Part shown: positions 15,805 through 59,561 of the stretch, in pieces
Numbering within the stretch: the stretch's first letter is position 1
How the letters are laid out: every line of letters begins with the position of its first letter
Assembly: GCA_963666055.2 (NCBI GenBank)
Contig: CAXWPH010000015.1
Span: 1,344,001 to 1,408,000 of the forward strand
Direction of reading: 5' to 3'
Length of the DNA stretch: 64,000 nucleotides
DNA from: Acidobacteriota bacterium
GTDB lineage: Bacteria > Acidobacteriota > UBA890 > WLXD01
Program-made: the position numbers and the translations under genes
Notes under the pieces: model-generated
The model's input: the letters and a program-made list of their open reading frames with translations, nothing else
What the model was told of the DNA's origin: nothing
Databases searched by the model: none

Positions 15805-15867
15805 GGCGCTACCGGAGGATGGTGGATGAGCGCCTGAAGCCTATCGCCGGAGTCTACGCGGGTCCAC
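15805..15867 (-). promoter_or_regulatory. Kinase-family promoter/leader, copy A
   Basis: GTGGAC-N18-TAGGCT then TCAGGCGCTCATCCA...GGTAGCGCC-ATG. Confidence 0.65.
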
Positions 15868-15991
15868 GGAAGACGTCGTCACGGGCTTTTACTAGCGCCG
15901 AATGGCCCATACGCGAGCGTATCGGGAGACCTATATATACGGACGTGGCTCCGCCACCCACACATCGTTGGCAGCCTAGTTCACCCTGGAC

Positions 15992-16093
15992 GGGGACAAA
16001 ATAGGGACAATCAGTCGATCGGAGCGATCCGTTTGATTATCGTGATCCCGATAAGTCCTTTGTTTTCAAGTACCGAGGGAGGGACTCGAACCC
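15992..16093. mobile_element. Relic integrase attachment site with 3' fragment of a tRNA (probably Leu)
   Basis: GGGACA direct repeats at 15993 and 16004; minus strand 16070-16093 reads GGGTTCGAGTCCCTCCCTCGGTAC (T-arm plus acceptor strand). Confidence 0.7.
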
Positions 16094-16172
16094 GATCTAG
16101 CGGATTCTGCTAAGTGGTTGATGGCGCACGGCTTTCGCCGTTTCTCGTTGGCAGGGACTCGCTCACGAGGGC

Positions 16173-18086
16173 TCACGTTGTCGACAACAAGTCCGTCACC
16201 GCCCGATGCGCCTCACCAATGGCAACCTCGGTCATGGCCCACGCGCCCGCGTCGGAGTTGGCGATGGCGATCCGGCCAAAAGGTTGGCGGGCGACGAGCC
16301 ACGGACGACGCTCGGGCGGTAGATCATCGGGTCTCCACGCGACCTCACCCGTCTTCGGATCCTGGCCGTATGCATAGCCGTGTGGCCAGCGATTCACGGT
16401 TATCGCCGCGATGTCGCGCGCCGGGTCGAAGCCTCCGGCTGACAGTATCCGGCCGAGCTGATCCCTGATCTTGCGCTCGAAGGTCGCGAACGTCGTCGCC
16501 AGCAGACGCCGGCGCGCGGCCTTCCACTGCTCAGGCACGGACCGCCCGCGGGCCTCCGGCACCAGGGGAATGCGGAACATACGCACGACGATGGGCTCGT
16601 CAGGCGTGCTCGCGTGTCGGTAGCTCCCAATGCTGAGCGGTCGCTGCACATTAACGTTCTCGAAGTAGCTGCCTGGGCAGCGCACCCTGCTCACACCGAG
16701 CTTGGCGAAGGCGGTCCAGTTGCGGATCAGGACGTTGGTGTAGATAAGGGGCGCCTTGAGTGCGATCGATAGCGCGTGTTTTTGCGGATCCGGCAGTTCC
16801 TCGCAAATCAAAGGGATCACGGCGTTGTAGCAGGCGAGCACGCAACGACCGGCGCGAACTCGCCGGGCGTGGCCGTGGCGGACGTAGGTGACCTCGACTT
16901 CCTTGGCGATTCGCCGATCGCCACGGTGAGCTACCTGCACCGCTGTGCTCTCCAGCCGCACGCGGACAGCCGAGCCCTCCCGATCGAGCTTGCCATAGTC
17001 GAACGGAGCGTCGACAACGTCCTCCATCGTGCTGCCGGAAGCGACCTCTGGGATCAGCGACCGGACGATCAGACGCGCGATTGACGCGTTGCCATCCGGA
17101 AACTGGAAGAAAGCACGCTCCTCGACGGGTTCGGCATCGTCGTCGCCGAGCCCCAGCCCGGTGGTCCCAGGCCAGCTGCCGGCGACGAGCCAGGCGGGGA
17201 CGCCATCGAGGCCGATAGTCCAACCGCCGGAGGTCTCGAGGAAGGAGATTGCCTCGCGACCGACCTTGGCCACCTTCAAGAGAAAGTCCTCGTAGCTCGT
17301 GCGCCGAAGAAACGCGGCCTTCTCCTCCAAGCTGAGGTGGGCCAAGTAATCGATGCTCGAGTCGTGGAGTCGTAGGATGTCATCACGTGCCCCTTCGGAC
17401 AGGGGCGCGCGCGCCAGGAACTCGCGCCAAGAGGGCTCGCCTTCGCCTACTAGCAGGCGATCGGTGCCGAACGTTTCGCGGTCGAAGAAAACCGATCTGC
17501 GCAGGCCGAGCGAGCTGTACAGGTCGCTATCGACGAATTCGGAGTAACGGCTTACGTCGATGCCAATCCCGCGGATCAGGCGCTGGGCTCCTTCACCGTA
17601 CTCGTTCAGGTTGGAGATAAAGACCGTGCCGCCATGCGACAGGAACACCCGACCGTCGAGCCGGAACTCGTTGCGCTTGGCATGACCGCCGAAGTCGTCG
17701 TGGTTGTCGAGAATCAAGATGCGGGCGCCGGGAACAGCTTCTTGATAGAACCACGCCGCCGCGAGGCCGCTGAGGCCACCGCCAACCACGACCAGATCAT
17801 AGAGCTCACCCGTCTCCTCCGCGTTGTCCCAGCGCATGCCTTCGACAAGCTGGTGGGCAACCTCGTAGGAGCCGTCGTGGCTGCCGCGCATACCAGTGCG
17901 GATGGGTGGATACGTGTCGGCGAGGGCCTGTGAGACTCTTCCCGGAGCCTCAGGGCTCGCCAGGGCGTTCGTCTGCGCCCATGGGAGCGTGAGACTGCCG
18001 CTCAGCGCAACGCTGATACCGGAGACAAAGTCGCGACGGTTAATCTCCCGGTGCATCCCGAGATCACGATCATCACTGCTGGACAT
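16173..18086 (-). CDS. Spermidine dehydrogenase SpdH-like FAD oxidoreductase with Tat signal, copy 1
   Basis: NRRDFV, GMRGSHDGS, GGGLSG, DNHDDFGGHAKRNEF, FPDGNAS and VNRWPHGYAY motifs. Confidence 0.85.
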   Translation of the reverse strand: MSSSDDRDLGMHREINRRDFVSGISVALSGSLTLPWAQTNALASPEAPGRVSQALADTYPPIRTGMRGSHDGSYEVAHQLVEGMRWDNAEETGELYDLVVVGGGLSGLAAAWFYQEAVPGARILILDNHDDFGGHAKRNEFRLDGRVFLSHGGTVFISNLNEYGEGAQRLIRGIGIDVSRYSEFVDSDLYSSLGLRRSVFFDRETFGTDRLLVGEGEPSWREFLARAPLSEGARDDILRLHDSSIDYLAHLSLEEKAAFLRRTSYEDFLLKVAKVGREAISFLETSGGWTIGLDGVPAWLVAGSWPGTTGLGLGDDDAEPVEERAFFQFPDGNASIARLIVRSLIPEVASGSTMEDVVDAPFDYGKLDREGSAVRVRLESTAVQVAHRGDRRIAKEVEVTYVRHGHARRVRAGRCVLACYNAVIPLICEELPDPQKHALSIALKAPLIYTNVLIRNWTAFAKLGVSRVRCPGSYFENVNVQRPLSIGSYRHASTPDEPIVVRMFRIPLVPEARGRSVPEQWKAARRRLLATTFATFERKIRDQLGRILSAGGFDPARDIAAITVNRWPHGYAYGQDPKTGEVAWRPDDLPPERRPWLVARQPFGRIAIANSDAGAWAMTEVAIGEAHRAVTDLLSTT

Positions 18087-18238
18087 AGGTCGTCCTCCAG
18101 CTTCTCTGACGCCGTAGCTGCGCGGATCGTCGGTTCTCGAGTCCCTACCGATTCCCCTCGTGTCCAAACTCTACCGTTCCGGAGCCTAATGCCCAGCTGC
18201 GCTGAGCGCCACGGCACGTCGGAGGGGAATCCGCCGAT

Positions 18239-18328
18239 CGTGTCGCGTGCTCGACACACCTGCCCCATACCGCTTTCACCGAGCGGGGCGAGGGTCTCGT
18301 AGTGGCCTAATCGCGTGCCAGGTTCCAT
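18239..18328 (-). pseudogene. Ser/Thr kinase N-terminal fragment (30 codons)
   Basis: MEPGTRLGHYETLAPLGESGMGQVCRARDT. Confidence 0.85.
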
Positions 18329-18391
18329 AGCGCTGCCAGCCGGGGTTGGGTGGGCGCGTGAAGCCTATCGTCGGGGCACGCGGGGGTCTAC
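18329..18391 (-). promoter_or_regulatory. Kinase-family promoter/leader, copy B
   Basis: GTAGAC-N18-TAGGCT then TCACGCGCCCACCCA...GGCAGCGCT-ATG. Confidence 0.6.
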
Positions 18392-18557
18392 GGGCGGGCA
18401 CCGCCGTGGCCCCAGCTTCGCGTGCCGGAACGCCCCGATACCTCAAGTAGTCGACTCCAGTCGACTGGCGTCTACTGGAGTGAACCCCAGTCGTGGAGAC
18501 GTTTTGGAGACGGCAAGTCAGCGACGCGGCGGATCTTGGTGGTCTGCGCTGGGTAGG

Positions 18558-18990
18558 CTACGGCTCCGTCGGCACGAGCCGCTTCAGCTCGTCGAACCAT
18601 TTGAGCACAACTTCGATCTGGGTAACCGGCTCCGCCGGCTCGGAGAATTTGATCATCACAAGATCGCCGTCGGGAGTGATGTCGTAGGCTCGGACGGGGC
18701 TCGTCCAGACCACCCCCGGCGCCTCAAACAACACGCTCGGCGTTCCGAGATCGAGTGTTTCACCGCCGGTGACTGTGACCTCGACGATCATCATCCGCTC
18801 ATACAGCTCTCCTGCTCGATACAAGAGCGCTTGCCCGTCCCTCCCCCACACCGGGCTGGTGCCACCGTTCGTCGAGATCCGTATCTCTGGGTCTGGTCCC
18901 GGGAAAGGCCGCACGTAAATCTCGTGCTGCCCCGTGTGATCGGAGGCATAGGCTAACCACGTCCCAACTGGCGAGAACGTCGGGGGATAC
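18558..18990 (-). pseudogene. C-terminal TolB/PD40 fragment of a Ser/Thr kinase
   Basis: WLAYASD.TG..EIYVRPFPG and terminal VVLKWFDELKRLVPTEP, nearly identical to the end of the kinase at 62189. Confidence 0.85.
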
Positions 18991-19043
18991 GCCCCCGAGG
19001 ACCCCAAGGGGTGTAAGCTCGGGAAAATCGCCGTGAGGGAATT

Positions 19044-19259
19044 ATGTTCGGCTCGATCGGGGGCACTGAGCTCCTCATTATCCTGGTGATCGCGCTCGTG
19101 GCGTTCGGCCCGAAGCGTCTGCCGGAGCTGGGGCGCACGATTGGCAAGGGCCTGCGTGAGTTCCGACGAGCCTCGAACGACCTGAAACGCTCGCTTGAAG
19201 ATGAGATCATGCTCGATGAGCACCGTAGCGAGCGGACGGGTTCTCGCGATACTGACTGA
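19044..19259 (+). CDS. tatA: Twin-arginine translocase TatA/TatB subunit
   Basis: MFGSIGGTELLIILVIALVAFGPKRLPELGRTIGKGLREFRRA. Confidence 0.85.
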   Translation: MFGSIGGTELLIILVIALVAFGPKRLPELGRTIGKGLREFRRASNDLKRSLEDEIMLDEHRSERTGSRDTD

Positions 19260-19371
19260 GCGAGTGAACCGACTGGACGAGTGGTCGGAGTAACCGCGCG
19301 GTGAGCGAGTCTGAAGGCGCGACGATGGCCGAGGACCAGCCGGGAGCTGGCCGGACGAGACGCTACCGGAA

Positions 19372-19484
19372 ATGACGTTGCTCGGTCACCTGACCGAGCT
19401 CCGCCGACGCCTCATCGTCAGCTTGGTGACGTTCGTCATCGGGATGGTGGTGTGCTGGGCGTTCGCGGCGGACATCTACAGGCG
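19372..19484 (+). pseudogene. tatC: TatC N-terminal fragment
   Basis: MTLLGHLTELRRRLI and the first TM helix, then similarity stops. Confidence 0.8.
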
Positions 19485-19616
19485 GATGTCCCAGCTCGTC
19501 CCAGGACGCTGTTCCTGGAAGACCAAGTTCCCGTCGAACGACCAGGCCCATGGGGATTGGATGTTCGGGCTCTTGGTGAGCTGCTCGACCTCCCCGCTGC
19601 CGTCGGCCCTCTGGAT
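19485..19616 (-). pseudogene. Internal PD40/TolB fragment of a Ser/Thr kinase
   Basis: RADGSGEVEQLTKSPNIQSPWAWSFDGNLVFQEQRPGTSWDI aligns with the kinase region around 61560-61700. Confidence 0.7.
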
Positions 19617-20049
19617 CAGTTTGGACCTCGTCTGGACCCTGGCGTTGGGCGTTACCGGCGTGCTGCCCCTGTTGTTGGGGAGTGGGTAACGGCGGGGGAA
19701 CGTGAGCCCCCCGTGATCGCTACGGCGCTATGTCGCTTCGATGAGCGCCTCGATCGCCAGATGCGCCGCGCCGATCGCACCTTCGGTCATCGCTCGTGCA
19801 CGCTCCACAGAGTCATCGGATCGCTCCAGAGGTCGTAGAGCAGCAGTGGGGAGGTGCGCGTATCCGGATCGTTGATCTCCAACGAAGCGCCCCAGTGACC
19901 GTCCACCACCTCGATGACGCCCTCCAGCTCGCCGCCATCGGCATCGAACCCCTGGCGCTCCTCGTTGCTCAGACAAAGCATCCGATCACTACCTCACGGC
20001 CAGACGGGGCAGCGGCACCGTGGGCCTCGACTTTCGGGCGGGCGGGCTT

Positions 20050-21957
20050 CTACGCCAGCAGATCGCGGATCGCCCGGTGTCCTTGGTCGATGGCACAATC
20101 GACGTAGGCTTCGCCACCGGCATCCGAGTTGGCAACTGCCACCCTTCCGAACGGCTTACGGCCGATGACACAGGGCATGTCCTCGTCGGTCCAGTCCGGC
20201 TCGCCGAGGTAGGCGTACTCGTAGGCGTAGCCGTGCGGCCAACGGTTGACGGTAATGGCCTCGATATCGGAGGCTGGATCAAAGCCTCCGGCACCGAGGA
20301 TGCGGCCGAGTTGGTCCCGAATGTTGTGCTCGAAGACCCTGAAGGGGGTCGTCAACAGCTCATAGCGTCCCGCCCGGAACTGCTCTTTGGGCGGCAAGCC
20401 GGGCTTCGTCGAGCTGCGAGAGAGGTGCAACGCCGTCGGCTCATCCGGAGAGCTCGGGTAGCGATAGTCGCCGAGGCTGACAGGGAAGTCCAGGCTGACT
20501 CCGGCGAAATAACTACCCGGACAGGAGACACCGCTAATCCCCAGCTTGTGGAAGCAGCGCCAGTTGCGGATCACGACGTTCGTATAGGTTAGCGGCAGCT
20601 TCACTGCATAGGAGAGGGCTTGCTTTTGTTGCTCCGGCATCTCCGGGCAAAGATACGGAATGACGCTGTTCCAACAGGCCAGTACCGCGTAACTACCCCT
20701 CACCCGCTCTGCTTTGCCGGCTCGCACGTAGGTTAGCTCGACATCGGCGGCACTCTCGGGCGCCCCCCGATGGAGCACCCGGACCACCGTGCTGTCGAGA
20801 CGCACTCGCGCCGGCGCACCGGGCTCGTCGAGCCGACCGTAATCGAAGCGCGCGGTCACCACATCGTCCATCGTGTTGCCTGCTGCGACGGCCGGGATCA
20901 ACGCCCGTACGATCAGCCGTGGGATCGAGGCGTTGCCGTCGGGAAAATGGAAGATATAGGGGTCGTCTTGCTGGTTGGCTTTCGCCGGCGCCCCCATTCT
21001 GCTCACCATGCTGCGTTCCAACCCGATTCCGTCGAATCCAGGGTACTCCAGCCTCCAGCCACGGATCGCAGCAACCCCATCGATGCCGATGCCGAACAGA
21101 CCGTTGCTGCGGGTCTGGAGATAGGTGGCGACCATAGGGTCGACCTTGGCATATTGCCGCAAGTAATCCCGGTAGCTTATGGCGCTCAGTCGACGGAGCT
21201 TCTGCTCGGGCGTGAGGTCCGGCATATAGTCGATGGACGCCGTGTAGAGTCGCACCAGATCCTTGCGCGCCGTCTCGGGAAGTGGTGTCAGCGCTGCGAA
21301 CTCCTCCCATGACATGCCGTCACGGACGATCAGCCGATCGTCGCCAAAGGTTTCGCGGTCGAAGAAGACGGCGCGCTTGAGACCGAGGGAGGCGAACAAC
21401 TCGGTGTCGAATGCCTCCTGAAAGCGCTCGAGATCGACCCCCAGATCGCTGAGCAACCGATGGCTCTCGGCGCTGAAGCCGGACGGTGTATCGATCGATT
21501 GGCTGCCTCCATAACCGATTAGCGGTCGTCCGCCAGCCTCGAACTCGTTGCGCTTGGCGTGACCGCCAAAGTCGTCGTGGTTGTCGAGCACCAGAATCTT
21601 GGCTTCCGGCCCAACCGCCTGACGGAAGAAATATGCGGCCGCCAGACCGCTGATACCGGCCCCCACGACGACCAGATCGTAGCGCTCACCCGTATCGGTA
21701 GCTTCGTCCTCCCAGGACCTGCCGTCCTTGAGCTCGTGGGAGGCCTCCCAGGAGCCATCGTGGCTTCCCCGCATGCCCGTGAGCATCGGTGGGTAGGCTG
21801 CGGCTGCCCCGTCGCCTGTGATCTCCAACGGTGTTGCCGACGCCAATCCGCCCAGACCCGGTACCCCGAGCAACGAACCAGCGACGGAGATCCGCACTCC
21901 GTCGAGAAAATCCCGCCGACTGATCGGCCGATTCATGCCGAGATCCCGATCACTCAC
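20050..21957 (-). CDS. Spermidine dehydrogenase SpdH-like FAD oxidoreductase with Tat signal, copy 2
   Basis: SRRDFL, GAGISG, DNHDDFGGHAKRNEF, HFPDGNAS and VNRWPHGYAY motifs. Confidence 0.85.
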   Translation of the reverse strand: MSDRDLGMNRPISRRDFLDGVRISVAGSLLGVPGLGGLASATPLEITGDGAAAAYPPMLTGMRGSHDGSWEASHELKDGRSWEDEATDTGERYDLVVVGAGISGLAAAYFFRQAVGPEAKILVLDNHDDFGGHAKRNEFEAGGRPLIGYGGSQSIDTPSGFSAESHRLLSDLGVDLERFQEAFDTELFASLGLKRAVFFDRETFGDDRLIVRDGMSWEEFAALTPLPETARKDLVRLYTASIDYMPDLTPEQKLRRLSAISYRDYLRQYAKVDPMVATYLQTRSNGLFGIGIDGVAAIRGWRLEYPGFDGIGLERSMVSRMGAPAKANQQDDPYIFHFPDGNASIPRLIVRALIPAVAAGNTMDDVVTARFDYGRLDEPGAPARVRLDSTVVRVLHRGAPESAADVELTYVRAGKAERVRGSYAVLACWNSVIPYLCPEMPEQQKQALSYAVKLPLTYTNVVIRNWRCFHKLGISGVSCPGSYFAGVSLDFPVSLGDYRYPSSPDEPTALHLSRSSTKPGLPPKEQFRAGRYELLTTPFRVFEHNIRDQLGRILGAGGFDPASDIEAITVNRWPHGYAYEYAYLGEPDWTDEDMPCVIGRKPFGRVAVANSDAGGEAYVDCAIDQGHRAIRDLLA

Positions 21958-22124
21958 CGCCGTCTTCCACCTCGTGGATCGAGCCGACCATCGCTCGCAG
22001 ACTCACGGAAACAACACCGCCCCGGAAGGCTCAGGCGGTGATCAAAACACAAAGCCCGCAATCAGAAAAGCGAACCGCAGAAAGACCGGCGGCCAAGAAT
22101 CCGAAGGGCTCGGCGATCACCACC

Positions 22125-22220
22125 CATGGCGATGAAGCGCACGCCGTCCGACTCATCGAACCCGTGGATGGTGGCGATGTTGGGGTGGTTCAGCGAGGCG
22201 AGCAGCTTGGCTTCGCGCTC
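22125..22220 (-). pseudogene. Internal Ser/Thr kinase fragment (subdomains III-V)
   Basis: EREAKLLASLNHPNIATIHGFDESDGVRFIAM, nearly identical to the kinase at about 59727-59822. Confidence 0.9.
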
Positions 22221-25155: not shown

Positions 25156-25388
25156 TTAACTGAACATACCCTTGCGCCACCGGTAGTACGTGTTCTCGCT
25201 GATACCCAGCTTCCGGCATGCCTCCGGTGTCTTGGCTCCCTGCGCCAGCTCGATCTCTGCCTCCCTGAGCTTGGCGATGATCTGCCCTACTGTGTACCGC
25301 TTCCGCGCCATTGTTCCCCCTTCCCGAGCCTTCCTGAGAGCCTCAAATCCTAATTCTCAATCCGGCCCGATTATTGGGGGGCAGGTCA
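25156..25388 (-). mobile_element. IS3-family (IS407-like) remnant: left IR and truncated orfA
   Basis: IRL TGACCTGCCCCCC at 25388; MARKRYTVGQIIAKLREAE...CRKLGISENTYYRWRK at 25311-25156. Confidence 0.85.
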
Positions 25389-28011: not shown

Positions 28012-29466
28012 TCAGTGAATACTCTGAATCCCAGCGACAGGTGGCGCGGCGAATTCGACACCTCGCTCCGTGACGACGCCACGCTCGTGCAGACTGCAAT
28101 AGTAAATATGTCTCCCTGCACCCCATTTCGGGACGGGCATATGGACCATGTATTCGATGCCCAAGGTGAGCAGGAGCGGGATCTTCTTGTCCGCGTGCCA
28201 TCTTGCACCCATAGGTGAAACCCGGGGCGCCAGCATGCCCTTGCCAACCTGATGAAGGTCTAGGTGCACTTGGGTCTTTTCGGGGTCCAGGCTCGGGTCG
28301 AATCTGTCTCTGTCGATGTAGGCAAACCCGGCTTCTTCCAACTTGCCGATGATCCGCGCAAGGGCTTGGCGTCCTGTATCGCCGACCCTGATGTTCTTGC
28401 TAATGAGCTTGCGGACTCTCACGACTTCATCCCAGCTCCTTTGGACTTCTGGAGGCGGGCCGGTCTCGCCCTCACGGAGTACGTAGTAGGGGACCATGCC
28501 GCTCTGGAACATGTCGCCGTGCTGGAGGGGGAAATCTTCGAAGGCGCTTTCATCATGATCCCATTCGCGCGTCGAGAACCAGCTGCCCCCTACATCGCGC
28601 AAGGTGGTGACGCCGGGTACGATCTCTTGAAATGTCCTAGTCCGGCGCGGTAGGCCGGAGCCACCAAAGAGAACGATTTCGCCGGCGACACTGCTCGTGA
28701 GGTAGTCCAAGATCATGTTCTCAGCGGAGACCATTCGCTTGGCGTACTTGTCGCCCAACGCGCGAGACAAATGGAGGTGGTCCGCATAGGAAATACCGTC
28801 GGTGAGGGCGAGGGTATATGTCTCGGAGCCCTCGGCGAGTGACAGTTTCTCCGCGTAATTCACACCGATTCGCTTCGGGTCACGTTCGGCGACGAAATCT
28901 CCGAGCCCCATGAACCGGTAGCCCATCTCTGAGTGGGGAACGTCGTTCGGGTTCTCCCTGACGTAGTCCATAATCTCGTAATTCTCTTGATTAATGAACT
29001 TCGACTGGCCGCGGACGATGTCGAAGGCGCCGTCGTCATCAACCTCACCTTCAAAGACGACCCGCTCAATTCTGTCGCCGCCACGATCGGTAAAGACGAG
29101 GACGGCGGCATTGCTGCCGAATTCATAGCGAAGGGGGTCGGTGGAATCGATGTTGCTGTAATTGAGATCGAGGCTCTCTAGTCTTCTGAGCTCGTTTCCG
29201 CTAAAGGTCCAGGGCCGAATAATGTGAATCCACATGTCGACGCGTTCATCACGCATGACGCGGGGTAAAACCAAGTCGAATTTCTCCCGGCGAATGTGGT
29301 TCAGCATTTCTTTGGTCGCATAGGGGTTATCGTCGTCGAAGGCCCCGTAGTAGGTGTCGCTGATGCCGGGCAGGGCTTCAGGATTACGAGCTCGCGTTTG
29401 TGCGGTTGACACGTGTGCGAGGCACAGCAAAGAAAGAGGCTGCCAGCACAAGTCGTAATTCGGTCA
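28012..29466 (-). CDS. M24 (Xaa-Pro aminopeptidase)-like exported protein, paralog 1
   Basis: VLPRVMR...DMWIH, ERDPKRIGVN and EYMVHMPVPKWG; apparent frameshift in the signal region. Confidence 0.65.
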
Positions 29467-29480
29467 CCGGCAATCTCCTG

Positions 29481-30717
29481 CTAGCGGATAATCAGAATCT
29501 CTTGTGTGGGTCGCGCCGGAAAGCTCGACGCCACGTTCGGTGACCATTGCTCCGTCGTGGAGGCAAATGTATAGGTGTTTTCCCTTGCCCCATTCCGGCA
29601 CGGGCATGTGGATCATGTATTCGAGGGCGAAGGTATGGTAGAGGGGAATCTTCAGATCGCGGCCCCAACCGGTTGGAGAAATCCTCGGCGCTTCCTCCTG
29701 TGAAACCATTCTTCCGAGCGCATGGAAGTCGATATGGACCTGCGTTTTCTCCGGGTCCGCGCTCGTGTCATATTGATCCTGATCGATGTAGTGGTATCCG
29801 GCTTGCTCGAGTTGCTCGATGAGGATGTCGAGTGTTTCGGCCCCTGTCCGACCTGCGACGATGTTTCTACGGAACAGTTCACGGGCTCGTAGGGCATGTC
29901 CCCATATACGCTGGATCTCCGGAGGGAGCCCCGTCTCGCCCTGGCGAAGGACGTAGCCGATGCCGCCGTTGTGCTCACTGAATTCCCGCATGTTCGCGTC
30001 GTGCAGTATCCCGACGAGATCGCCGGGTTGGACGACGTAATCGGTATTGTTTTCTTCGTTGCCGTCGAGGTCCCTGACGAATACATTACCGGCAATATCG
30101 CTCAATCGAGTTTCGCCGGGGACGATGCTTGCCAATGCGCTCTCTATGATGTTGGTGCTGTTTATGAGAAGGCGACCATAGAGGGCTACTTCGCTCATCA
30201 CCCTGCCGGCCAAGAAATCCGCTATCAAGTGGTCGGCTGGGACGACTCGATTACTGTATTCGCCGCCCAGTGCTTCAAGGACCCGTGTGCGATCCTCGGT
30301 CGAGATGGTGTCGAAACCGGAACCCTCTTCGGCGTAATTGAGGGCGATACGCCTGGGGTCACGGTCGGCGACGAATCGTCCCAAGTCACTTTCAGGGCCG
30401 AACACGTCATAGAGTTCACGGTCGGCTTGGCCGCCGAGGACAGCCCGCTCGATGCGCGCCTCACCGCGGTCGGTAAAGATATAGACGCCGGAATTGTCGC
30501 CGAGCTCGTAATTGAGGGGGTTCTTTCCTCTGATCACGTGGATCCACATGTCGATGCCGTTGCTCTTCATCGCTTGCGGGAGGACCAAGGCGAATTTCTC
30601 GCCACGAATGAGATTCATCAGGGCCGGAAACGCCTCGAGCTCTTGACGCTGGGCGTGGACTTCTTGGGCAACCAGAAGCATGCACAAGAGTGTGAGGACG
30701 TTCCGTACTCCATACAT
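29481..30717 (-). CDS. M24-like exported protein, paralog 2
   Basis: Same motifs; a 1-nt shift near 29520 restores the EFPARPTQEILIIR-stop ending. Confidence 0.65.
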
Positions 30718-30736
30718 GGTTGGCCTCTGTGCCTTA

Positions 30737-30882
30737 AACAGGGTGCTGAAAAACTCTGGCGGGTCTGGCGCGTGGGTCTTGCTGGCGAGATCAAGGAAGA
30801 GCGACGATGGCGATGCCAGGGTGCATCGTCGAGGAGCTGTAACGCTGAGATCGCCAGCAACCCTCACGCGCCCGAAGGGTTA
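30737..30882. mobile_element. Degenerate MITE related to the 7252 element (one TIR only)
   Basis: CAGGGTGCTGAAAAA end; shares GGGTCTGGCG, GGGTCTTGC, CAAGGA, GGCGATG, CATCGT and GCCCGAAGGGTTA in order with 7252-7427. Confidence 0.65.
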
Positions 30883-30895
30883 CGGCGTCGTGAAT

Positions 30896-32313
30896 CTATT
30901 GAATGATCTGAATCTTGGTGGATTGGTCGGGGTATGGAATCTCCATGCCACGGCTGGTGACGATGCCGCCATCGTGAAAAGCGGCAGACATCTGTTGCCC
31001 AGTGAAATTATTTCCACGAGACCATTCCGGCACGGGCATATAGATCATGTATTCGACGGCGAAGGTGTGAAACAGGCGGATTGTCGTGTTCCAGTGCCAT
31101 TTTGGTCCCATCGGCGAAATCCTGGGCGCGAGAATTCCCTTCCCTTCCGCATGCAAGTCGAGATGGACCTGGGTTCTGTCGGGGTGCGCGACGTATTTGT
31201 TGTATTCCTGGTAGTCCGTATACACGAACCCTGCGTCTTCCAGCTTTCGGGCGAGGAGATCGAGAGTCTCGCCACCCCGGTGCGGCCAACCTCGATGTTG
31301 TGCCGCAGGATGTCACGGACCCTTTTGTTATCCTCCCAGAAGTTCCGTATGTGCTGCGGTAAGTCGGTCTCGCCCTTCCGGAGCACGTAGGCTTGTCCCT
31401 CCCAATCACCAATGAGATCGCCGCGCTGAATCACATAGTCGTCGCCTCTTCGTTCATCTCCATCCTTGTTGATTACCGAGCCAACATCGATATCGCCGAG
31501 CGTGGTGACGCCGGGCACAATATTGGCGAATCTTCTGCCGCTCTCGCGTCGAAGGCCCGAAGTGCCGTAGAGAACTACTTCGCTGGCGACCCTTCTTGAT
31601 AAGTAGTCGAGGATGAGGTGTTCTGCTGAGACCATTCTCTTGGAGTAGATGTCGCCTAACGATTTGGATATCTGGACGTAGTCGGTGTATGAAATACCGT
31701 CACCGAGCGCCATGGTAAAAGTCTCGGAGCCCTCGGCAAACGAGAGTGTTTCGAGGTAGTTCACGGCGATGCGCTTTGGGTTCCGTTCAGCAACGAACCC
31801 GTAGAGGCCCTCGAATCTGAAGTCCAATTCCGACGCGTACTCGTCGCCGGGATTGTCGACGGCGTAATTCATGAACTCATAGTCTTGCTGACTGAGATAC
31901 TTGTATTTCTCGCCGACGATGTCGTAGGCGTCCGGATCTTGGACCTCACCCTGGAAAACGACCCGCTCGATCTGATCGCTGCCGCGATCGGTAAATATGA
32001 GAACGGCGGACTTGGTGCCGAATTCATAGCGAAGAGGATCGGTTCCGCCCCACGCCCAAGGTCGAATGACGTGGATCCACATGTCGATTGCTCTTTCACG
32101 CATAACCCGTGGCAAAATCAGGTAGAAGCGTTCTCTACGGACGTGATTGAGCATGTCAACGGTGGCATAGGGATTGCCGTCATCGAAGGTGCCGTAGTTC
32201 GCATCGTCGATGTTTGCCATGACATCGTCATACTGTTCGCCATATTGCGCAGTGGAGCCTTCAACAAACGAAAGTGTGAGCAAGAGTGTCAATACGGCTG
32301 TGGCTTTACACAT
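30896..32313 (-). CDS. M24-like exported protein, paralog 3; frameshift near 31275
   Basis: Two ORFs (31045-32364 and 30896-31225) together align with paralog 1. Confidence 0.65.
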
Positions 32314-37972: not shown

Positions 37973-38211
37973 CAGTCGAGCTGTTCCTCGAGCTCGTCAA
38001 CGGGTGTGGCCATACCCTTGCGGATGGACTGGCGCATTCCCGGGATCGATACGAGGTATAGCGTCTCCTGTACCGCGTGCCAGTCGTCCTCGCTGATCAG
38101 TACGGCATTGCCGCGCTTGCCGGTGATCTGCACGGGATCGTGCGATTCCTGCACCTCGTCGATCAGGTTGTAGAGCTTCTTGCGCGCTTCCGTCGCTGTG
38201 ATCGTGGTCAT
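37969..38211 (-). CDS. yefM: Phd/YefM family antitoxin
   Basis: ITATEARKKLY.LIDEV..SH.PV.ITGKRGNAVL...ETLYL. Confidence 0.92.
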   Translation of the reverse strand: MTTITATEARKKLYNLIDEVQESHDPVQITGKRGNAVLISEDDWHAVQETLYLVSIPGMRQSIRKGMATPVDELEEQLDW

Positions 38212-38226
38212 TGCGCACCTCTCTAT

Positions 38227-38248
38227 AACGTACGTATTAGCGTACGTT
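38227..38248. promoter_or_regulatory. Putative YefM-YoeB operator
   Basis: AACGTACGTATTAGCGTACGTT: two GTAC-core palindromes just upstream of yefM. Confidence 0.65.
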
Positions 38249-38276
38249 GAAGCTCCACGAATGTCAACTCATGAGG

Positions 38277-38354
38277 ATGAGCGGCAACACCAACTTCGGC
38301 GAATGCGCCTGCTTCAATGCGCGCCGGGCGGCCCGGATTCTCGGTCAGGCCCAC
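38277..38354 (+). pseudogene. MarR-family regulator N-terminal fragment
   Basis: ECACFNARRAARILGQ matches the CxCxxxRRAAR start of a MarR subfamily. Confidence 0.55.
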
Positions 38355-38454
38355 AAGAGCCCCGAGTGGCGGGCCTCGGCCGAGCGGCAGGAGCTGTTCC
38401 TGCTGGCTGGCGCAGCCGGGAAGGTCTGACCTCCGGTCCGCCCGCTCTCGCCTG

Positions 38455-38538
38455 TTGGCTCTCGTCCGGTCCGGCGATAGGCTGCAGGTGCCCAAGCACC
38501 TCTCTCTGGTAGCGCTGGAACCCGGTACTCGACTAGGC
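38455..38538 (+). promoter_or_regulatory. Kinase-family promoter/leader, copy C, with 7 kinase codons (ATG lost)
   Basis: TTGGCT-N17-TAGGCT...GGTAGCGCTG-GAACCCGGTACTCGACTAGGC (EPGTRLG). Confidence 0.7.
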
Positions 38539-38558
38539 CTGCCCTGGAGTCACCCCCC

Positions 38559-40367
38559 GTGAAGCATGTGAAACGGAGCCCGTATGGGTACGCGAAATCC
38601 CGAGCTCGGGTTCTGCTGATCAGCGGATCGCTCGCTGGTGTCCTGATCCTCGCCAGCAGTTGCAGCAACTCCGCCGACACCGTGCTTGAACCGACCGCCC
38701 TCCAGTACCAGGAAGTCGCCTCGGATCTCGAGGAGTCGTGGTACGAGGCATTCACCCTGTTGGATCACTACGCCCAGCAGCAGATCGATGAATGGGCCCT
38801 GCCGGGCATGGCGCTGGCGCTCACCGACGCGGATCGTCTCCTGGGGGTCTGGACCTACGGCTTTGCCAACCTCGATGCCCGCAGCCCGGTGCGGCCGGAC
38901 ACGCTGTTTCTGATGGGCTCGATCGGCAAGTCGTTTACCGGCATTGCCATCCTGCAGGAGCACGAGCGGGGAACGATCGATCTGCACGCCCCGGTGCACA
39001 CCTACCTTCCTTGGTTCGAGATCCAGTCCGATCGGCCACCGATTACCGTGCACGATCTGCTCACCCATACGGCGGGGATTATCGGCGGCTCGGACCTCGC
39101 ACCGCACGGGTACTACGAGGCGTGGGCCCTGCGCCACTCGCGGCTCTCCGCCGGACCGGGCGAGCGCTTCCACTACTCCAACGTCGGGTACAAGACCCTG
39201 GGGCTGTTGCTCGAAGCGGTACGCGGCGAGCCACTCGGTAAGATTCTCGAGGCTGGCATCTTGGAGCCGCTCGGCATGGCAGCGTCGCACGGGTCGATCA
39301 CCGCTGAGACGCGACAGCTGTCCGCCGTCGCCTACCGACCCCTGCACGACGATCGTCCGACCCTTCCCGGGGCGCCCCTTGTCCCGGCCGGCTGGCACGA
39401 ATACGGAGCCGGCGATGGCAGCGTCACGTCGACTCCGGCCGACATGGCCGCCTACCTGCGCATGCTGCTCAACGGCGGCCAGGGGCCCGCTGGCCGGATC
39501 CTGTCCGAGGGCAGCTTTCGGCTGCTTACCAGCCGGTGGACCGAGTTTGCGGAGAACGCCCATTACGGATATGGCCTTAACGTCTTGGAGGCAGACGGTC
39601 GTACGCTCCTGTCTCACGGCGGTGGTCATCTCTCGTTCGTGTCAAGCATCATCGCGGACCTGGATGCGGGGGTGGGTGCGGCGGTGATGATGAACGCCGG
39701 AGGCCCGGCCGGAGCCGTGGCGCGTTTCGCGCTCGACCTGGCCGTAGCGGTTCGCCGTGGCGAGAAGCTACCCGCGTTGCCGCAGGCGCAGGATCGCGAG
39801 CGCATCGAGGACACACAGGAGTACACCGGCATCTACCGATCCGACTCCAGACAGGTGGCGGTCGTAGCGGATGGAGGCAGGCTCTTCCTCGAGGTTGCCC
39901 CCAGCCGCGGCTCCGAGTCCAACTCGGCACCGGAGCGGATTCGCCTGTTGCGCTTGAGGAACGATGCGTTCGTCGTCGACTACCCGGAGTTCGCACGGTT
40001 CCCGCTTGTCGTCGGGCGTGAGGACGGCGCCGTGGTGGAGGCGTTCCACGGCGCCGAGTGGTTCCGCCACGAGCGCTACCGAGGACCTGAGAGCTTCGAG
40101 CTGCCGCAGTCGTGGCGCTCCTACGAGGGTCATTACCGCTCGCACAACCCCTGGATGAGCAACTTCCGCGTCCTGGCTCGCAAGGGGCGCCTCTACCTGG
40201 TCTATCCGCAGGGATCGGCGCAGCAACTCTTCCCCCTCGAGGACGGTGTTTTTGCCGTCGGGAATGAAGACGCCGCAGAACGGATCCGCTTTGGCGCCCT
40301 CGCGGTCGGCAGGGCCCTGTCCGCACGGTACGCGGGGGGCGACTACTACCGGGCGCTCAATCCGTAG
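38559..40367 (+). CDS. Serine hydrolase, beta-lactamase/AmpC-like family
   Basis: SIGK (SxxK), LLTHTAG, YSN and HGG motifs. Confidence 0.88.
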   Translation: MKHVKRSPYGYAKSRARVLLISGSLAGVLILASSCSNSADTVLEPTALQYQEVASDLEESWYEAFTLLDHYAQQQIDEWALPGMALALTDADRLLGVWTYGFANLDARSPVRPDTLFLMGSIGKSFTGIAILQEHERGTIDLHAPVHTYLPWFEIQSDRPPITVHDLLTHTAGIIGGSDLAPHGYYEAWALRHSRLSAGPGERFHYSNVGYKTLGLLLEAVRGEPLGKILEAGILEPLGMAASHGSITAETRQLSAVAYRPLHDDRPTLPGAPLVPAGWHEYGAGDGSVTSTPADMAAYLRMLLNGGQGPAGRILSEGSFRLLTSRWTEFAENAHYGYGLNVLEADGRTLLSHGGGHLSFVSSIIADLDAGVGAAVMMNAGGPAGAVARFALDLAVAVRRGEKLPALPQAQDRERIEDTQEYTGIYRSDSRQVAVVADGGRLFLEVAPSRGSESNSAPERIRLLRLRNDAFVVDYPEFARFPLVVGREDGAVVEAFHGAEWFRHERYRGPESFELPQSWRSYEGHYRSHNPWMSNFRVLARKGRLYLVYPQGSAQQLFPLEDGVFAVGNEDAAERIRFGALAVGRALSARYAGGDYYRALNP

Positions 40368-40484
40368 CGGATCGACGAAGTGGGCAAGAAGGGTGCCTGT
40401 CTTCGGTGCCCGGGCTGCACCTTGCCAATTCTCCCGTCGTGGAACTCGAAGACCTGAGCGAAGCGCAAGCCATCCGAGCCTCGG

Positions 40485-47813: not shown

Positions 47814-47924
47814 AGAGCGGAACGCACCTCGGCCACTACGAGATCCTCGGGCCGCTCGGTGCGGGCAGTATGGGCGAGCGTGTAACGGGCGCGCGATACG
47901 AATCTTGATCGCGACGTTGCCATC
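47810..47924 (+). pseudogene. Ser/Thr kinase N-terminal fragment with frameshift and stop
   Basis: VKSGTHLGHYEILGPLGAGSMGE / V*RARDTNLDRDVAI. Confidence 0.85.
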
Positions 47925-53699: not shown

Positions 53700-53869
53700 C
53701 TAGCAGGCCGTGGTGGAAGTGTCGTGGGTGGGTGACAGCCGAGCAGCGGTACTCTCCGCCAGAGGCCTCCCGTCAACCTCCGTTGGATCTCGCACGCGCT
53801 GACGATAGGCTTCAGGCGCTCATCCAAACCGCTTTGTTAGCGCACCACACTTTCACCACGGCCTGTTAG
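53700..53869. mobile_element. MITE-like element with the same TIRs as 7252-7427 but a different interior
   Basis: CTAGCAGGCCGTGGTGGAAGTGT...CACCACACTTTCACCACGGCCTGTTAG. Confidence 0.78.
53783..53843 (+). promoter_or_regulatory. Kinase-family promoter/leader, copy D, inside the MITE
   Basis: TTGGAT-N17-TAGGCT-TCAGGCGCTCATCCAAACCGCTTTGTTAGCGC; aligns with 59501-59561 and 15805-15867. Confidence 0.72.
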
Positions 53870-53892: not shown

Positions 53893-54681
53893 ATGACTAT
53901 GCGCCGATTCATCCGTCTATCATCCTTGTGGCTCTGTGCCTTTTCGCTGTTCGCTCCCTACGAAGAGGGCGTGGCGCAAGGCCTTGGAGATCATCAGTAC
54001 ACCAGCGCCGATATCGAAGCGGGCTCCCGGCTTTACGCGGCGGAGTGCGCGTTGTGCCATGCACCGACCGGCGACGGTGTGGACGGCGTAAATCTCAGAC
54101 TCGGACAGTTCCGCCAGCCGCTGTCGGATTTCGCTCTCCGCCAGCTGATCACAACAGGGCTGGCCGAGGCGCGCATGCCTGGTTTCGATTTTGACCCGAC
54201 CGAGCTCGACGCAATCGTGGCGTTCATCCGGTCGGGGTTCGATCCTGAGGGCACGGCGGTCAAGGTCGGTGAGGCGACTCGCGGGCGGGTGCTCTTCGAA
54301 GCGGAAGACGGTTGCGCTTCGTGCCATCGCGTCAACGGACGGGGCCCCCGGACCGCGCCGGATCTCAGTGACATTGGCTCCGTTCGCACGCCCGCCGCAC
54401 TGCAGCGGGCCCTGCTCGATCCGGCCGCCGCCCTCTTGCCGATCAACCGACCCGTGCGAGCCGTGACACGCGTTGGCGAGACCATCAGCGGTAGGCGGTT
54501 GAACGAGGACACGTACACGGTGCAACTGATCGATTCGGAGGGGCGACTACGTTCGCTCCTGAAGGCCGATCTGGTGGAGTTCGAGGTGAGTCGATCACCG
54601 ACGATGGAGCCGACGACGCTCTCCAGCGACGAGGTCGCGGATGTCATCGGGTACCTGCTCTCGCTGAGAGGCCTCCAATGA
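53893..54681 (+). CDS. Diheme c-type cytochrome
   Basis: CALCH and CASCH heme motifs; signal peptide. Confidence 0.88.
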   Translation: MTMRRFIRLSSLWLCAFSLFAPYEEGVAQGLGDHQYTSADIEAGSRLYAAECALCHAPTGDGVDGVNLRLGQFRQPLSDFALRQLITTGLAEARMPGFDFDPTELDAIVAFIRSGFDPEGTAVKVGEATRGRVLFEAEDGCASCHRVNGRGPRTAPDLSDIGSVRTPAALQRALLDPAAALLPINRPVRAVTRVGETISGRRLNEDTYTVQLIDSEGRLRSLLKADLVEFEVSRSPTMEPTTLSSDEVADVIGYLLSLRGLQ

Positions 54682-56336
54682 ACACCGTCCAACGCACGAT
54701 GCTGTTGGGGCTCGTCGTCGGAGGTCTGGTGGCGCCCCATCAGCTACTGGCGCAGGTATCGTACGAGCAGATCCTGAGCGCAGCCGACGAGCCGGACAAC
54801 TGGCTCACCTACAACGGCACATACGCGAGTCAGCGCTACAGTCGTCTCGACCAGATCACGGCGTCGAACGTCGACGACTTGGAGCTGAAGTGGATGCTCC
54901 AGAATCAGGCATTCGGGGCCTGGCAGTCGAACCCGATCGTCGTCGACGGAATCATGTACGTCACCGAGCGACCCAACGATGTCATGGCCGTCGATGCCGT
55001 CACCGGGCGGGTCTTCTGGATGTACCGGTACACCAACGCCCCGAACGCTACCGTGTGCTGCGGCGCCAACAACCGCGGCGTGGCGGTGCTCGACGACAAG
55101 GTGTTCATGGGCACCTTGGATGCGCATCTCATCGCCCTCGATGCGATCAATGGTCAACCGCTGTGGAAGGTCGAAGTCGGGGACGTGAATCTCGCCTACT
55201 CGATCACCATGGCGCCCCTGGTCGTGAAGGACAAAGTGATCGTCGGCGTTGGGGGAGGTGAGTTCGGGATACGAGGCTACATCGCGGCGTACGACGCCGA
55301 CACCGGCGAGGAGGCATGGCGCTTCTACACGATTCCCGGTCCCGGCGAGCCTGGCCACGAGACCTGGGAGGGTGACGACTGGGAGCACGGTGGTGCGCCC
55401 GTGTGGATCACGGGCTCGTACGACCCCGAGCTCAACCTGACGTACTGGGGCGTGGGCAACCCGGGTCCCGATTGGAACGCCGACCAGCGTCCGGGCGACA
55501 ACCTCTACTCGGACACGGTGGTGGCCCTCGACGCCGACACCGGTGAGCTGAAGTGGCACTTCCAGTTCACCCCGAACGATGGTTACGACTACGACTCGGT
55601 TCAGGTCCCCGTGCTGGTCGACATGGACTGGAACGGGGTGCCTCGGAACTTGATGTTGTGGGCGAATCGCAACGGTTACTTCTACGTGCTCGATCGCGTC
55701 ACCGGCGAGTTCCTATTGGGGGAGCCGTTCGTCAAGGTGAACTGGTCGAGCGGTCTGGACGACACCGGAAGGCCGATGCCGACGCCTCAGCCGGAGGGCT
55801 CTCCCACGTGGCCGGGCAACCAAGGTGGCACCAACTGGTATCCGCCCTCCTACAGCCCGCGGACGGGGCTGTTCTACTTTGCCGCCTGGGAGGACTACGC
55901 GACGATCTATCGGAAGGAAGTTTCCGAGTATGAACCGGGCCGCCCCTACCTTGGCGGTGGCTTCAGGGTGCTCGCACCGGCGCCTGGCGCGCCGACGATC
56001 GGTATCGGACGATCCTCCCCGATCAACAACTGGACCGACGAGGTCGGACACGGTGCGGTGATCGCCATGGACCCGCTCACCGGCGAGCCGCGGTGGAAGT
56101 TCGATCAATTCGACGTCAGCGACAGCGGCATGCTGACTACGGCGTCGGACTTGCTGTTCACCGGTGGCCGTGAGGGCTACTTCTACGCGATCGACGCGCG
56201 TAGCGGGGAGCTGCTGTGGAAAGCGAGCCTCGGCGGGCAGATCGTGATGGCACCGATCACGTTCATGGTCGATGGACAGCAATACGTCTCGGTGATCTCC
56301 GGGCACACGCTGGTGACGTTCGGTCTGCCCGACTAA
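54678..56336 (+). CDS. PQQ-dependent alcohol dehydrogenase (methanol/ethanol family)
   Basis: QRYSRLDQI, vicinal CC, GGEFG.RG, WGVGNPGP, GDNLY and TPNDGYDYD. Confidence 0.92.
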   Translation: MNTVQRTMLLGLVVGGLVAPHQLLAQVSYEQILSAADEPDNWLTYNGTYASQRYSRLDQITASNVDDLELKWMLQNQAFGAWQSNPIVVDGIMYVTERPNDVMAVDAVTGRVFWMYRYTNAPNATVCCGANNRGVAVLDDKVFMGTLDAHLIALDAINGQPLWKVEVGDVNLAYSITMAPLVVKDKVIVGVGGGEFGIRGYIAAYDADTGEEAWRFYTIPGPGEPGHETWEGDDWEHGGAPVWITGSYDPELNLTYWGVGNPGPDWNADQRPGDNLYSDTVVALDADTGELKWHFQFTPNDGYDYDSVQVPVLVDMDWNGVPRNLMLWANRNGYFYVLDRVTGEFLLGEPFVKVNWSSGLDDTGRPMPTPQPEGSPTWPGNQGGTNWYPPSYSPRTGLFYFAAWEDYATIYRKEVSEYEPGRPYLGGGFRVLAPAPGAPTIGIGRSSPINNWTDEVGHGAVIAMDPLTGEPRWKFDQFDVSDSGMLTTASDLLFTGGREGYFYAIDARSGELLWKASLGGQIVMAPITFMVDGQQYVSVISGHTLVTFGLPD

Positions 56337-56401
56337 GCGGCCCGAGAAAGATAACCGTTCGAGACATGATGCCCGTCGAATCCAAGAGAAGGAGATCGTC
56401 G

Positions 56402-58642: not shown

Positions 58643-58666
58643 CGGGCGCCGGCGCATGGTTGCCTG

Positions 58667-58927
58667 CTAGGCGGCGGACTGCCGTGTGATCCACTCTGCC
58701 AGAACGATCTTCATCAGCGATTGGTAAGGGACGTCGCGCCGATTAGCCTCTCGTTTGAGCTCGTCCAGCAACCAACTTGGCATGCGCATGGTGACTCGCG
58801 AGGTGGACGGCTTCAGAGCCGGAAACACCGCAGGACGTGGGCTGCTGAAGTCCACGAACTGCTCGAGACGATCGGCCTGGCTCTCGAGGTAGGCTGCCTC
58901 GTCGCGGTTCTTCTTCATCGTACCCAT
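58667..58927 (-). CDS. BrnA/CopG-like RHH antitoxin
   Basis: FP.LKPST..VTMRMP..LL..LK.EANRRDVPYQSLMK. Confidence 0.85.
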   Translation of the reverse strand: MGTMKKNRDEAAYLESQADRLEQFVDFSSPRPAVFPALKPSTSRVTMRMPSWLLDELKREANRRDVPYQSLMKIVLAEWITRQSAA

Positions 58928-59203
58928 CTCCTGTACTTGCGCTTAGTCGTCCACGCGGTAATCGGCCGGATCCGATCCTCACGAACAGTGAATGGCACGG
59001 TAATGTGCCGACCGTCGTCGGTGAGGCCAATGAGCCAGAAGCGTGGCTCGGAGTCTGAATGCTGCTGGTCCGGAAAGTAGGTTCCGCGACCATTCAGGAA
59101 CGCGCTCTCGACATCGGCAACGGCGAACCTTCGAGACTTTATCTTGCTGAGGTTGGCTGCATCCCAATCTGGATTCCGCCCTGGCGCGGCCGATTGTGGA
59201 CAT
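58915..59203 (-). CDS. BrnT family toxin; apparent frameshift near 59172
   Basis: DWD..N, HS..EPRF..IG.T..GR and FTVRE..IRPI.A. Confidence 0.78.
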
Positions 59204-59447
59204 AGATCACGAGAGGAGAACACACGTGGTTGTCTCAAAGGGTGACAAGAACAGAGCGAAGGGCGTGGAATGGGTGGGCATCGGCGTTGCACTCGGCGTG
59301 GCGCTGGGGGCGGCCATGGACAATATCGGCGCCGGTATCGCGATTGGCGTCGCCATTGGTGCGGCCCTGGCTGCAGGTCAGCGCGGCAGAAAGTCGAGCG
59401 CCGGACAGGCAGACGAAGATGAGACAGGCGGAAAGCCACCGGAGTAA
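59196..59447 (+). CDS. Small glycine-zipper membrane protein
   Basis: GIGVALGVALGAAMDNIGAGIAIGVAIG; start uncertain. Confidence 0.65.
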   Translation: MDIDHERRTHVVVSKGDKNRAKGVEWVGIGVALGVALGAAMDNIGAGIAIGVAIGAALAAGQRGRKSSAGQADEDETGGKPPE

Positions 59448-59500
59448 CCGAACCCGTGGCACCCTCGGCCGTATCTGGCGAGCTCACGCGGTTCCCTCCA

Positions 59501-59561
59501 TTGGATCTCGCACGCTCCGACGATACGCTTAGGCGCTTACCCACACCGCTTTGGTACCGAC
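59501..59561 (+). promoter_or_regulatory. Kinase-family promoter/leader, copy E (native position)
   Basis: TTGGAT-N17-TACGCT, 32 nt upstream of the kinase ATG. Confidence 0.65.

Follow-up and report, generated by a model that had tools for sequence, protein, structure and literature searches.

Why should one short block of DNA recur in front of unrelated genes? The question is posed by a stretch of 64,000 nucleotides from the genome of an Acidobacteriota bacterium (contig CAXWPH010000015.1, positions 1,344,001 to 1,408,000; the whole stretch is here called the window), in which a block of about 60 bp, the leader, occurs five times, once before a gene for a serine/threonine (Ser/Thr) kinase and four times before genes of other kinds. 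An earlier note on the window had given all five blocks with correct coordinates and strands and had read them as the 5′ ends of kinase genes, serving as promoter donors and landing pads for acquired genes in an integron-like route. The genome reveals a repeat family with scattered breaks, orphan 3′ ends, co-oriented arrays and mosaic kinases, and one joint that recurs in different contexts. The system is a large, unusually legible version of mobile-promoter or anchor recombination, and not an integron.

The core motif of the leader is found five times in the window and in none of 60 third-order Markov simulations. The copies are given below with the kinase remnant and the gene that follow each; genes come from a codon-model caller, with start sites and short genes approximate. 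G000 denotes the window's own genome (5.7 Mb, 95.7% complete) and G001 to G004 its four congeners.

15805..15867, minus strand: leader copy 1; −35 box TGGACC at 15861-15866, −10 box TAGGCT at 15838-15843; a 6-bp stem closes at the ATG
15555..15804, minus strand: kinase 5′ stub of 250 nt, 83 codons, with a stop after codon 74
15418..15557, minus strand: unrelated gene, 3′ end only, joined to the 83-codon stub; 92% to G000 C15:1234676-1234815
14473..15333, minus strand: S-adenosylmethionine-dependent methyltransferase gene, open
13754..14479, minus strand: open reading frame of 241 amino acids (aa) without Pfam or NCBIfam match
18329..18391, minus strand: leader copy 2; −35 box TAGACC at 18385-18390, −10 box TAGGCT at 18362-18367
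18240..18328, minus strand: kinase 5′ stub of 89 nt, 30 codons; the same codon-30 joint lies at G000 C13 and in G002 with other upstream DNA
16173..18086, minus strand: SpdH-like spermidine dehydrogenase gene (E 5e-145 to PDB 7d9i)
38455..38517, plus strand: leader copy 3, kinase ATG lost; −35 box TTGGCT at 38455-38460, −10 box TAGGCT at 38478-38483
38518..38540, plus strand: about 7 kinase codons (23 nt); joint some 20 bp short of the following start codon, the same in G001 and G002
38559..40367, plus strand: beta-lactamase-family serine hydrolase gene, far below class C beta-lactamase cut-offs
53783..53843, plus strand: leader copy 4, with 0 kinase codons; −35 box TTGGAT at 53783-53788, −10 box TAGGCT at 53806-53811
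53926..56336, plus strand: cytochrome c and pyrroloquinoline quinone (PQQ) alcohol dehydrogenase
59501..59561, plus strand: leader copy 5; −35 box TTGGAT at 59501-59506, −10 box TACGCT at 59524-59529
59562..62189, plus strand: kinase-transmembrane-PD40/TolB-like propeller gene, full span, broken
62134..62215, plus strand: kinase 3′ end block, conserved over the final 15 codons and some 25 nt past the stop

These stub lengths agree with the 80, 30, 7 and 0 codons estimated before, and the four genes that follow the stubs are indeed open and co-oriented with their leaders. What had been called a methyltransferase pair contains one gene with methyltransferase families (14473-15333), and about 115 nt from the end of another gene (its 3′ end) lie between it and the 83-codon stub. 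Nor is the kinase after the last copy full-length, as had been stated: a frame-shifting loss near 60815 breaks it, and this loss is real, being spanned without a gap by contigs of the public runs X1 and X2. At 60142 the frameshift comes from an error in the assembly, the same contigs being one base longer there. Independently assembled public contigs also span the joints themselves: the one at 53783 is bridged in X1, X2 and X7, the one at 18329 in X2 and the stub-to-methyltransferase joint of 15805 in X3, and all sampled words of 37800-40400, around the leader at 38455, are present in four public runs; the best-matching runs may be the source sample itself. A joint in X3 at 18249-18557 that skips the leader has a side of 27 letters and was too weak to use, and runs with small shares of the window's words were not taken as evidence.

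Genome-wide, a profile built from the five window copies (one iteration) finds 82 copies in G000 at E ≤ 1e-6, a number that rises to 93 at E ≤ 0.01, the best match in the reversed genome having an E value of 6.5. The set used below consists of the 84 leaders at E ≤ 1e-4, five of them in the window. Weaker rows among the 95 at E ≤ 0.02 were dropped, as was one half of a 13-kb inverted duplicate (C8:29538-42541 against 53958-66961, 99.9%, running to the contig end) that is probably an assembly artefact. A 19-letter pattern drawn from the block occurs 74 times in G000, 42, 24, 21 and 6 times in the four congeners and 0–2 times per genome in 21 further members of the order; as a multi-copy motif it is confined to one genus. 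No description of the repeat or of the kinase family was found in a literature search that mostly did not reach subscription journals.

The block is predicted to be the sigma-70 promoter and leader of an expanded Ser/Thr kinase–beta-propeller family. Conservation starts sharply just before a TGGACC or TTGGAT hexamer, continues through TAGGCT 17 bp on and ends at the kinase ATG. The five window copies combine −35 boxes TGGACC, TAGACC, TTGGCT or TTGGAT with a 17-nt spacer and a −10 box TAGGCT or TACGCT, in agreement with the sigma-70-type spacing proposed earlier, and most of the 84 leaders carry TGGACC or TTGGAT 17 nt from a TAnnnT −10 box. In the latter, T1, A2 and T6 are invariant in 84/84 leaders, positions 3 and 4 varying in 10 and 7; invariance of these three positions of the −10 hexamer is the sigma-70 pattern. 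Hexamers of the TAnnnT type are also enriched upstream of divergent genes of G000 (TAGAAT 14.8-fold, TAGACT 12.2-fold, TAGGCT 3.0-fold). A scan of 13000-19000 for promoters of E. coli type, with that species' own consensus and a threshold of 9/12 matches, returned no site, a −35 matrix derived from 162 native upstream regions gave no clear signal, and no Rfam covariance model matched the window. The 6-bp stem that closes at the ATG can pair in 77–95% of the 64 copies compared, which show hardly any compensatory change, and the leader alignment reveals neither inverted repeats nor target duplication at the edge.

Only 24 of the 84 leaders are followed by a full-span kinase, and 14 of these have an open frame of at least 777 aa. 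The other 60 lack the kinase wholly or for the greater part, 41 retaining a stub and 19 standing as leader only; these orphans align at 74–100% to the leaders of full kinases. Their breaks range from −32 to +830 nt and fall at 51 distinct positions among the 59 measured, which argues that no site-specific system made them. Ten joints were compared with a donor-like copy; four are clean three-way joints with an overlap of 1–2 nt, and two of these four lie mid-gene, pointing to illegitimate joining. The other end of the kinase behaves likewise. Its conserved 3′ end block (the final 15 codons with some 25 nt beyond the stop) occurs in 92 copies, of which 59 are orphans that have no such promoter, and 46 of the 92 retain less than 150 nt. 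Of 125 pairs of neighbouring kinase elements within 10 kb, 115 have both members on one strand, and 14 of the 60 orphan leaders next meet a same-strand orphan 3′ end, mostly with other genes replacing the kinase middle. Tyrosine-recombinase matches lie within 10 kb of an element in 11 of 19 cases, against 21.7% by chance (p=0.0006), so that the arrays appear to occupy island-like DNA.

The kinase family itself combines a Ser/Thr kinase domain, a transmembrane segment and a PD40/TolB-like propeller, and its 29 long open frames share a median protein identity of 39%. At the two ends of the gene the median DNA identity is 73–79%, with values up to 95–100%. Synonymous codon identity among 13 intact paralogues reaches 0.66 and 0.69 at the two ends and falls to 0.37–0.47 in residues 250-850, the genome expectation being 0.27–0.38. 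Moreover, the nearest neighbour of an intact paralogue is not the same in the kinase domain, the propeller and the tail: in codons 1-60 C13:25335 matches C6:267906 at 95% identity, in its propeller it is about 50% identical to anything, and C8:28630 shows the opposite. Intact paralogues are thus mosaics with homogenised ends, and the high synonymous identity together with the switching neighbours suggests that recombination homogenised them. The family holds 61 5′-only and 30 3′-only pieces per 36 near-full copies; in nine further large families the counts do not exceed 9 and 4. Kinases often stand in coupled pairs in which the first stop overlaps the second start (C5:60968, C6:270623, C8:31341, C13:48563 and others); the second type of kinase has no leader and is truncated likewise. 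Matches of the kinase domain in PADLOC (PD-T4-6 and others) are those of a generic kinase, the propeller has none, and no defence role is claimed.

Orientation bears on whether the leaders serve the genes behind them. Among the 60 orphans, one lacks a next gene and six precede kinase-family frames, leaving 53 to be scored; the next non-kinase gene is co-oriented in 42 of them (79%). In relatives, at loci chosen around pattern matches (40 leaders in G002, 20 in G004), the counts are 23/36 and 11/14. Genes upstream of leaders are co-oriented in 34/59, 18/36 and 7/14 cases in G000, G002 and G004, respectively. The difference between the two sides is significant in G000 (Fisher p=0.016) and in the three genomes pooled (Fisher p=0.004, the relatives not being independent). 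Other settings give 34/59 and 36/58 around orphan 3′ ends, 9/16 after full kinases and 8/14 after leaderless stubs. Tested against fixed rates, 42/53 departs from 50% with p=1e-5 and from 58% with p=8e-4. Reuse before unrelated genes, as the earlier note had it, therefore exceeds the local strand bias, but it is not universal: co-orientation is frequent and incomplete, so that promoter capture is a tendency rather than a rule. Co-oriented and antisense orphans are not distinguished by how close the next gene lies. Loss of the ATG was considered as a general sign of selection for the promoter alone and was rejected: 27 of the 28 co-oriented stubs keep an intact ATG, the beta-lactamase copy being the one exception.

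The downstream genes encode sulfatases, serine hydrolases, an amidase, an amine oxidase, dehydrogenases and peptidases, and belong to many unrelated Pfam families (25 genes outside the window, of the 42, were scanned). Stubs of about 18–37 codons run in frame into enzymes at C3:2063, C10:10875, C12:29117, C15:414842, C15:1302099 and C2:381476, the fused enzymes being sulfatases, a serine hydrolase, a cyclase-family protein and a dehydrogenase. In the window the cargo has ordinary third-position G+C content, and three of the four genes occur in all four congeners, the methyltransferase alone being patchy: it is matched (E ≤ 1e-30) in one of five relatives, G002, behind a leader and a 47-codon stub. 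Most cargo is thus native to the genus, and the description of these genes as acquired does not hold.

Comparison with the relatives suggests that joints move. In the window a leader stands before the codon-30 joint of the SpdH-like gene; at C13 that leader is deleted, and in G002 the joint is preceded by a kinase start of a second type. One joint in three upstream contexts suggests a single origin followed by movement by way of kinase homology. In G002, the flank that belongs in G000 to the full kinase at C15:1323196 precedes a clipped leader and the cargo found in G000 behind leader C6:321818. A leader linked to tRNA-Met offers a shared site with a long kinase in a relative: G004 has a kinase of 732 aa cut by an insertion sequence, G000 has a 35-codon stub and a 756-aa gene at C14, and C7 carries two other contents. 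The tRNA-Met gene and its two 3′-half copies (C14:334305, C7:13071-13335, C7:130089-130359) share about 270 bp downstream that end in the leader; successive island integrations at tRNA-Met are likely to have carried the leader along. Other joints are shared between species. The beta-lactamase-family gene is present in all four congeners, its leader joint being shared by G000, G001 and G002 over 20% protein divergence, and in G003 and G004 it has native upstream DNA and no leader. Cytochrome c is likewise present in all four, with its leader kept in G002 and degenerate in G003 and G004. Two of the 40 G002 leaders match G000 on both sides, or three with the beta-lactamase site. Kinase 5′ ends are landing pads, then, in the sense of recombination anchors, and not in that of integron-like capture.

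To explain the spread of the leader we lean towards a combination of random breaks, recombination at repeated kinase ends and partial selection. Random, nearly blunt breaks would join the leader to whatever gene lies beyond, by deletion, by Ku end-joining (G000 encodes Ku) or by homology-facilitated illegitimate integration of incoming DNA. Exchange of RecA type within the leader, the first 30–60 codons and the last 15 codons could then spread the joints, mostly within islands linked to tRNA genes and integrases, and selection would favour joins that place an intact gene under the promoter, the orientation bias reflecting that selection. A dedicated recombinase would not be needed. In a bolder form, which we regard as doubtful, the homogenised kinase ends would constitute a distributed cassette platform free of integrase, with RecA swapping modules bounded by the promoter-stub and the 3′ block among dozens of sites.

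Several results weigh against this combination of breaks, exchange and selection. Contigs of an RNA run (X20) barely cover the window, so that promoter activity stays a prediction. The figure of 42/53 does not depart significantly from the genome-wide rate for downstream neighbours (68.6%; p=0.06) or from leaderless stubs (p=0.16), and for G002 alone p is 0.066. The next gene is antisense at 11/53 orphans in G000 and 13/36 in G002, a quarter to a third, and the −10 box is kept equally in the antisense-facing orphans of G000 (11/11); its conservation is thus no proof of use. The C13 copy of the SpdH-like gene is intact without a leader and so survives leader loss, and the G002 methyltransferase behind its leader is 5′-truncated. 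A clean swap, with one upstream flank and another cargo, was seen at 1 of 40 G002 leaders, 27 of the 40 being unmappable either way. The end bias of kinase pieces is inflated because conserved ends are recognised more readily than middles that have diverged, and ComEC, present in 11/11 genomes, is weak evidence for uptake of DNA since it is near-universal (10/14 control genomes). Plain decay would accommodate much of this: a costly, fast-turnover family in unstable islands would be eroded by deletion, its ends merely staying recognisable and the position of the promoter being mostly incidental. By deletion G002 has lost the last leader of the window and about 770 kinase codons, with only the 3′ end left; the islands of G000 and G002 are scrambled throughout, also away from kinase ends; and the promoter-less 3′ ends are orphaned as often as the leaders, in 59 copies. 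Antisense neighbours are equally what decay would leave. It does not, however, predict that orientation bias is stronger after leaders than before them and around 3′ orphans, that identical joints recur in different upstream contexts, that synonymous sites are homogenised at the ends, or that leaders of the beta-lactamase and cytochrome c genes are retained in several species, and we consider it unlikely.

Adaptive diversification, in which the ends act as crossover sites like the upstream and downstream homology sequences (UHS and DHS) of antigenic variation, swapping propellers, with remnants as archival cassettes and capture of cargo as a by-product, draws on the mosaic intact kinases C13:25335 and C8:28630 and on the co-oriented arrays of remnants; yet the variable middle is gone from most remnants, of which only the ends are left, and a single expression site is lacking, all leaders having their boxes (84/84), which makes it improbable. 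Still less probable is site-specific capture, in which the leader would be the recombination site of a recombinase acting in trans. The sharp 5′ edge just before the −35 box, a 3.2-kb duplication (99.8%) that starts at the leader edge and the tyrosine recombinases near arrays would fit such a system, but the scatter of breakpoints largely refutes it, and the lack of compensatory change in the stem and of repeats or duplications at the edge argues in the same direction. The earlier note had remarked on the absence of a recognisable intI, and no IntI (TIGR02249) scores over the cut-off in G000, where a 3′ fragment remains at C10:50422, 30 kb from the nearest element. None of the 84 leaders overlaps any of 71 candidate attC-like hairpins in a heuristic scan that did find sites beside the IntI of G002, flanked by real attC sites. 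That a misassembly of repeats created the pattern is scarcely credible: there is at least one indel error (60142) besides the C8 inverted duplicate, whereas public contigs from two studies run across the window joints that were tested, and other species have the same joints.

How does this family stand among known systems? Integrons are defined by IntI, attI, attC hairpins of the form RYYYAAC...GTTRRRY that border the cassettes, and the promoter Pc. The arrays resemble them in that unrelated co-oriented genes are separated by a repeat and share a promoter type, but here there is no intact IntI, no attC at the repeat and no fixed crossover, and the upstream repeat is the promoter itself. With scattered breakpoints and leaders away from attC-like hairpins, and with a true integron of the genus lying elsewhere, the integron-like capture route is not supported. 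That integron, at G002:C8 ~1206900-1215200, has an IntI over the cut-off and about six attC-like sites; G000 has attC-like sites at C15:773819 and C15:775223.

Closer parallels are found in mobile promoters and recombining arrays. Putative mobile promoters, in the survey by Nijveen, Matus-Garcia and van Passel (2012), are defined as sequences more than 80% similar over at least 50 nt before unrelated genes, and were proposed to rewire regulation; their families are mostly pairs and their way of moving is stated there as unknown (PMC3575422). The leader family likewise has similar upstream sequence before non-paralogous genes, and differs in having 84 copies, a known source gene and a gradient of stubs that records the uncoupling. 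The survey excluded promoters running into paralogous coding sequence (PMC3575422); by that measure the 19 leader-only copies fit, and 41 carry kinase stubs. For the effector-immunity clusters of type VI secretion (T6SS) and the rhs loci of Vibrio cholerae, homology-facilitated illegitimate recombination has been proposed as the builder of arrays (Kirchberger et al. 2017, PMC5361080). A conserved 5′ anchor, an illegitimate far joint, 3′ remnants of the displaced resident and co-oriented arrays are features in common; the anchor here is a promoter and kinase N-lobe at about 84 sites, and the cargo consists of metabolic genes, not effector-immunity pairs. The anatomy of the leader joints, an anchor with 1–2 nt joints and the same joint behind different anchors, fits this mode of recombination, and intragenomic repair fits equally. 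In Borrelia hermsii, vmp genes have one active promoter and silent archives, the UHS excluding the −10 and −35 boxes (PMC6011951). There, too, a block covers leader and first codons, a 3′ block and a variable middle follow, and genes are chimeric; here, by contrast, every copy has boxes and most remnants are without a middle. For Solibacter usitatus, a large group of Ser/Thr kinase paralogues with less than 50% identity was attributed to ancient duplication in a paper that nowhere uses the word ‘promoter' (PMC3174227), in contrast to ends that are 73–79% identical in DNA (median) and remnants that outnumber genes.

Further pieces of kinase and traces of mobile DNA lie in the window:

9786..9825, plus strand: short leaderless kinase 5′ remnant
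13072..13599, minus strand: tyrosine recombinase 3′ fragment, then the 5′ half of tRNA-Arg; a genomic-island scar by the array
18526..18983, minus strand: orphan kinase 3′ remnant, residues ~765-903, with end block 18526-18613, about 170 bp upstream of leader 2
22095..22208, minus strand: internal kinase fragment, residues ~60-100
47818..47920, plus strand: leaderless kinase 5′ stub
53704..53865, no strand assigned: two arms of a CTAG-targeting family of miniature inverted-repeat transposable elements (MITEs) around leader 4; outer parts absent at the G002 site

The MITE family is CTAG-flanked and about 270 bp long (7256-7423 and 53704-53865 in the window), with 352 end matches genome-wide, many solo ends retaining only the first 25–35 nt. 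At least one leader copy (53783) is MITE-flanked; the MITE as its promoter carrier was rejected, because the leader is present in G002 and the outer arms are not. Two GTCGAC palindromes mark a short repeat (18440-18520 and ~15485) that has seven genome matches, often after SpdH-like genes. These oxidoreductases (16173-18086 and 20050-21957 in the window) have about 30 paralogues per genome in the genus, nearly all intact, with 25–35 matches in the four congeners and none in G007. Fragments at ~19250-19690, antisense inside a kinase 3′ remnant, are presumably tatA- and tatC-like by their translation, and 25170-25388, with copies in G002 and G004, is presumably an IS3-like fragment. Three tandem paralogous genes at 28012-32292 (minus strand; ~420–470 aa, no Pfam match) occur also in G002, and a BrnT toxin-family match lies upstream of leader 5 (58667-59170).

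The interest of the family lies in its intermediates: one promoter in 84 copies, with the full gradient of leftover coding sequence, can be traced across five species, so that promoter capture by anchor recombination becomes testable from genomes and transcript starts. Even if the process is neutral, caution in annotation is advisable, since dozens of short ‘kinases' and several kinase-fused enzymes are remnants. In an uncultured lineage, accessory DNA can be reshuffled chiefly through the repeats that an ordinary family of signalling genes provides. If the break-and-recombine route is correct, it would amount to an integrase-free rewiring of gene expression; and should the kinase ends form a cassette platform, sensor domains would be reshuffled and native enzymes switched onto one shared, possibly co-regulated promoter.

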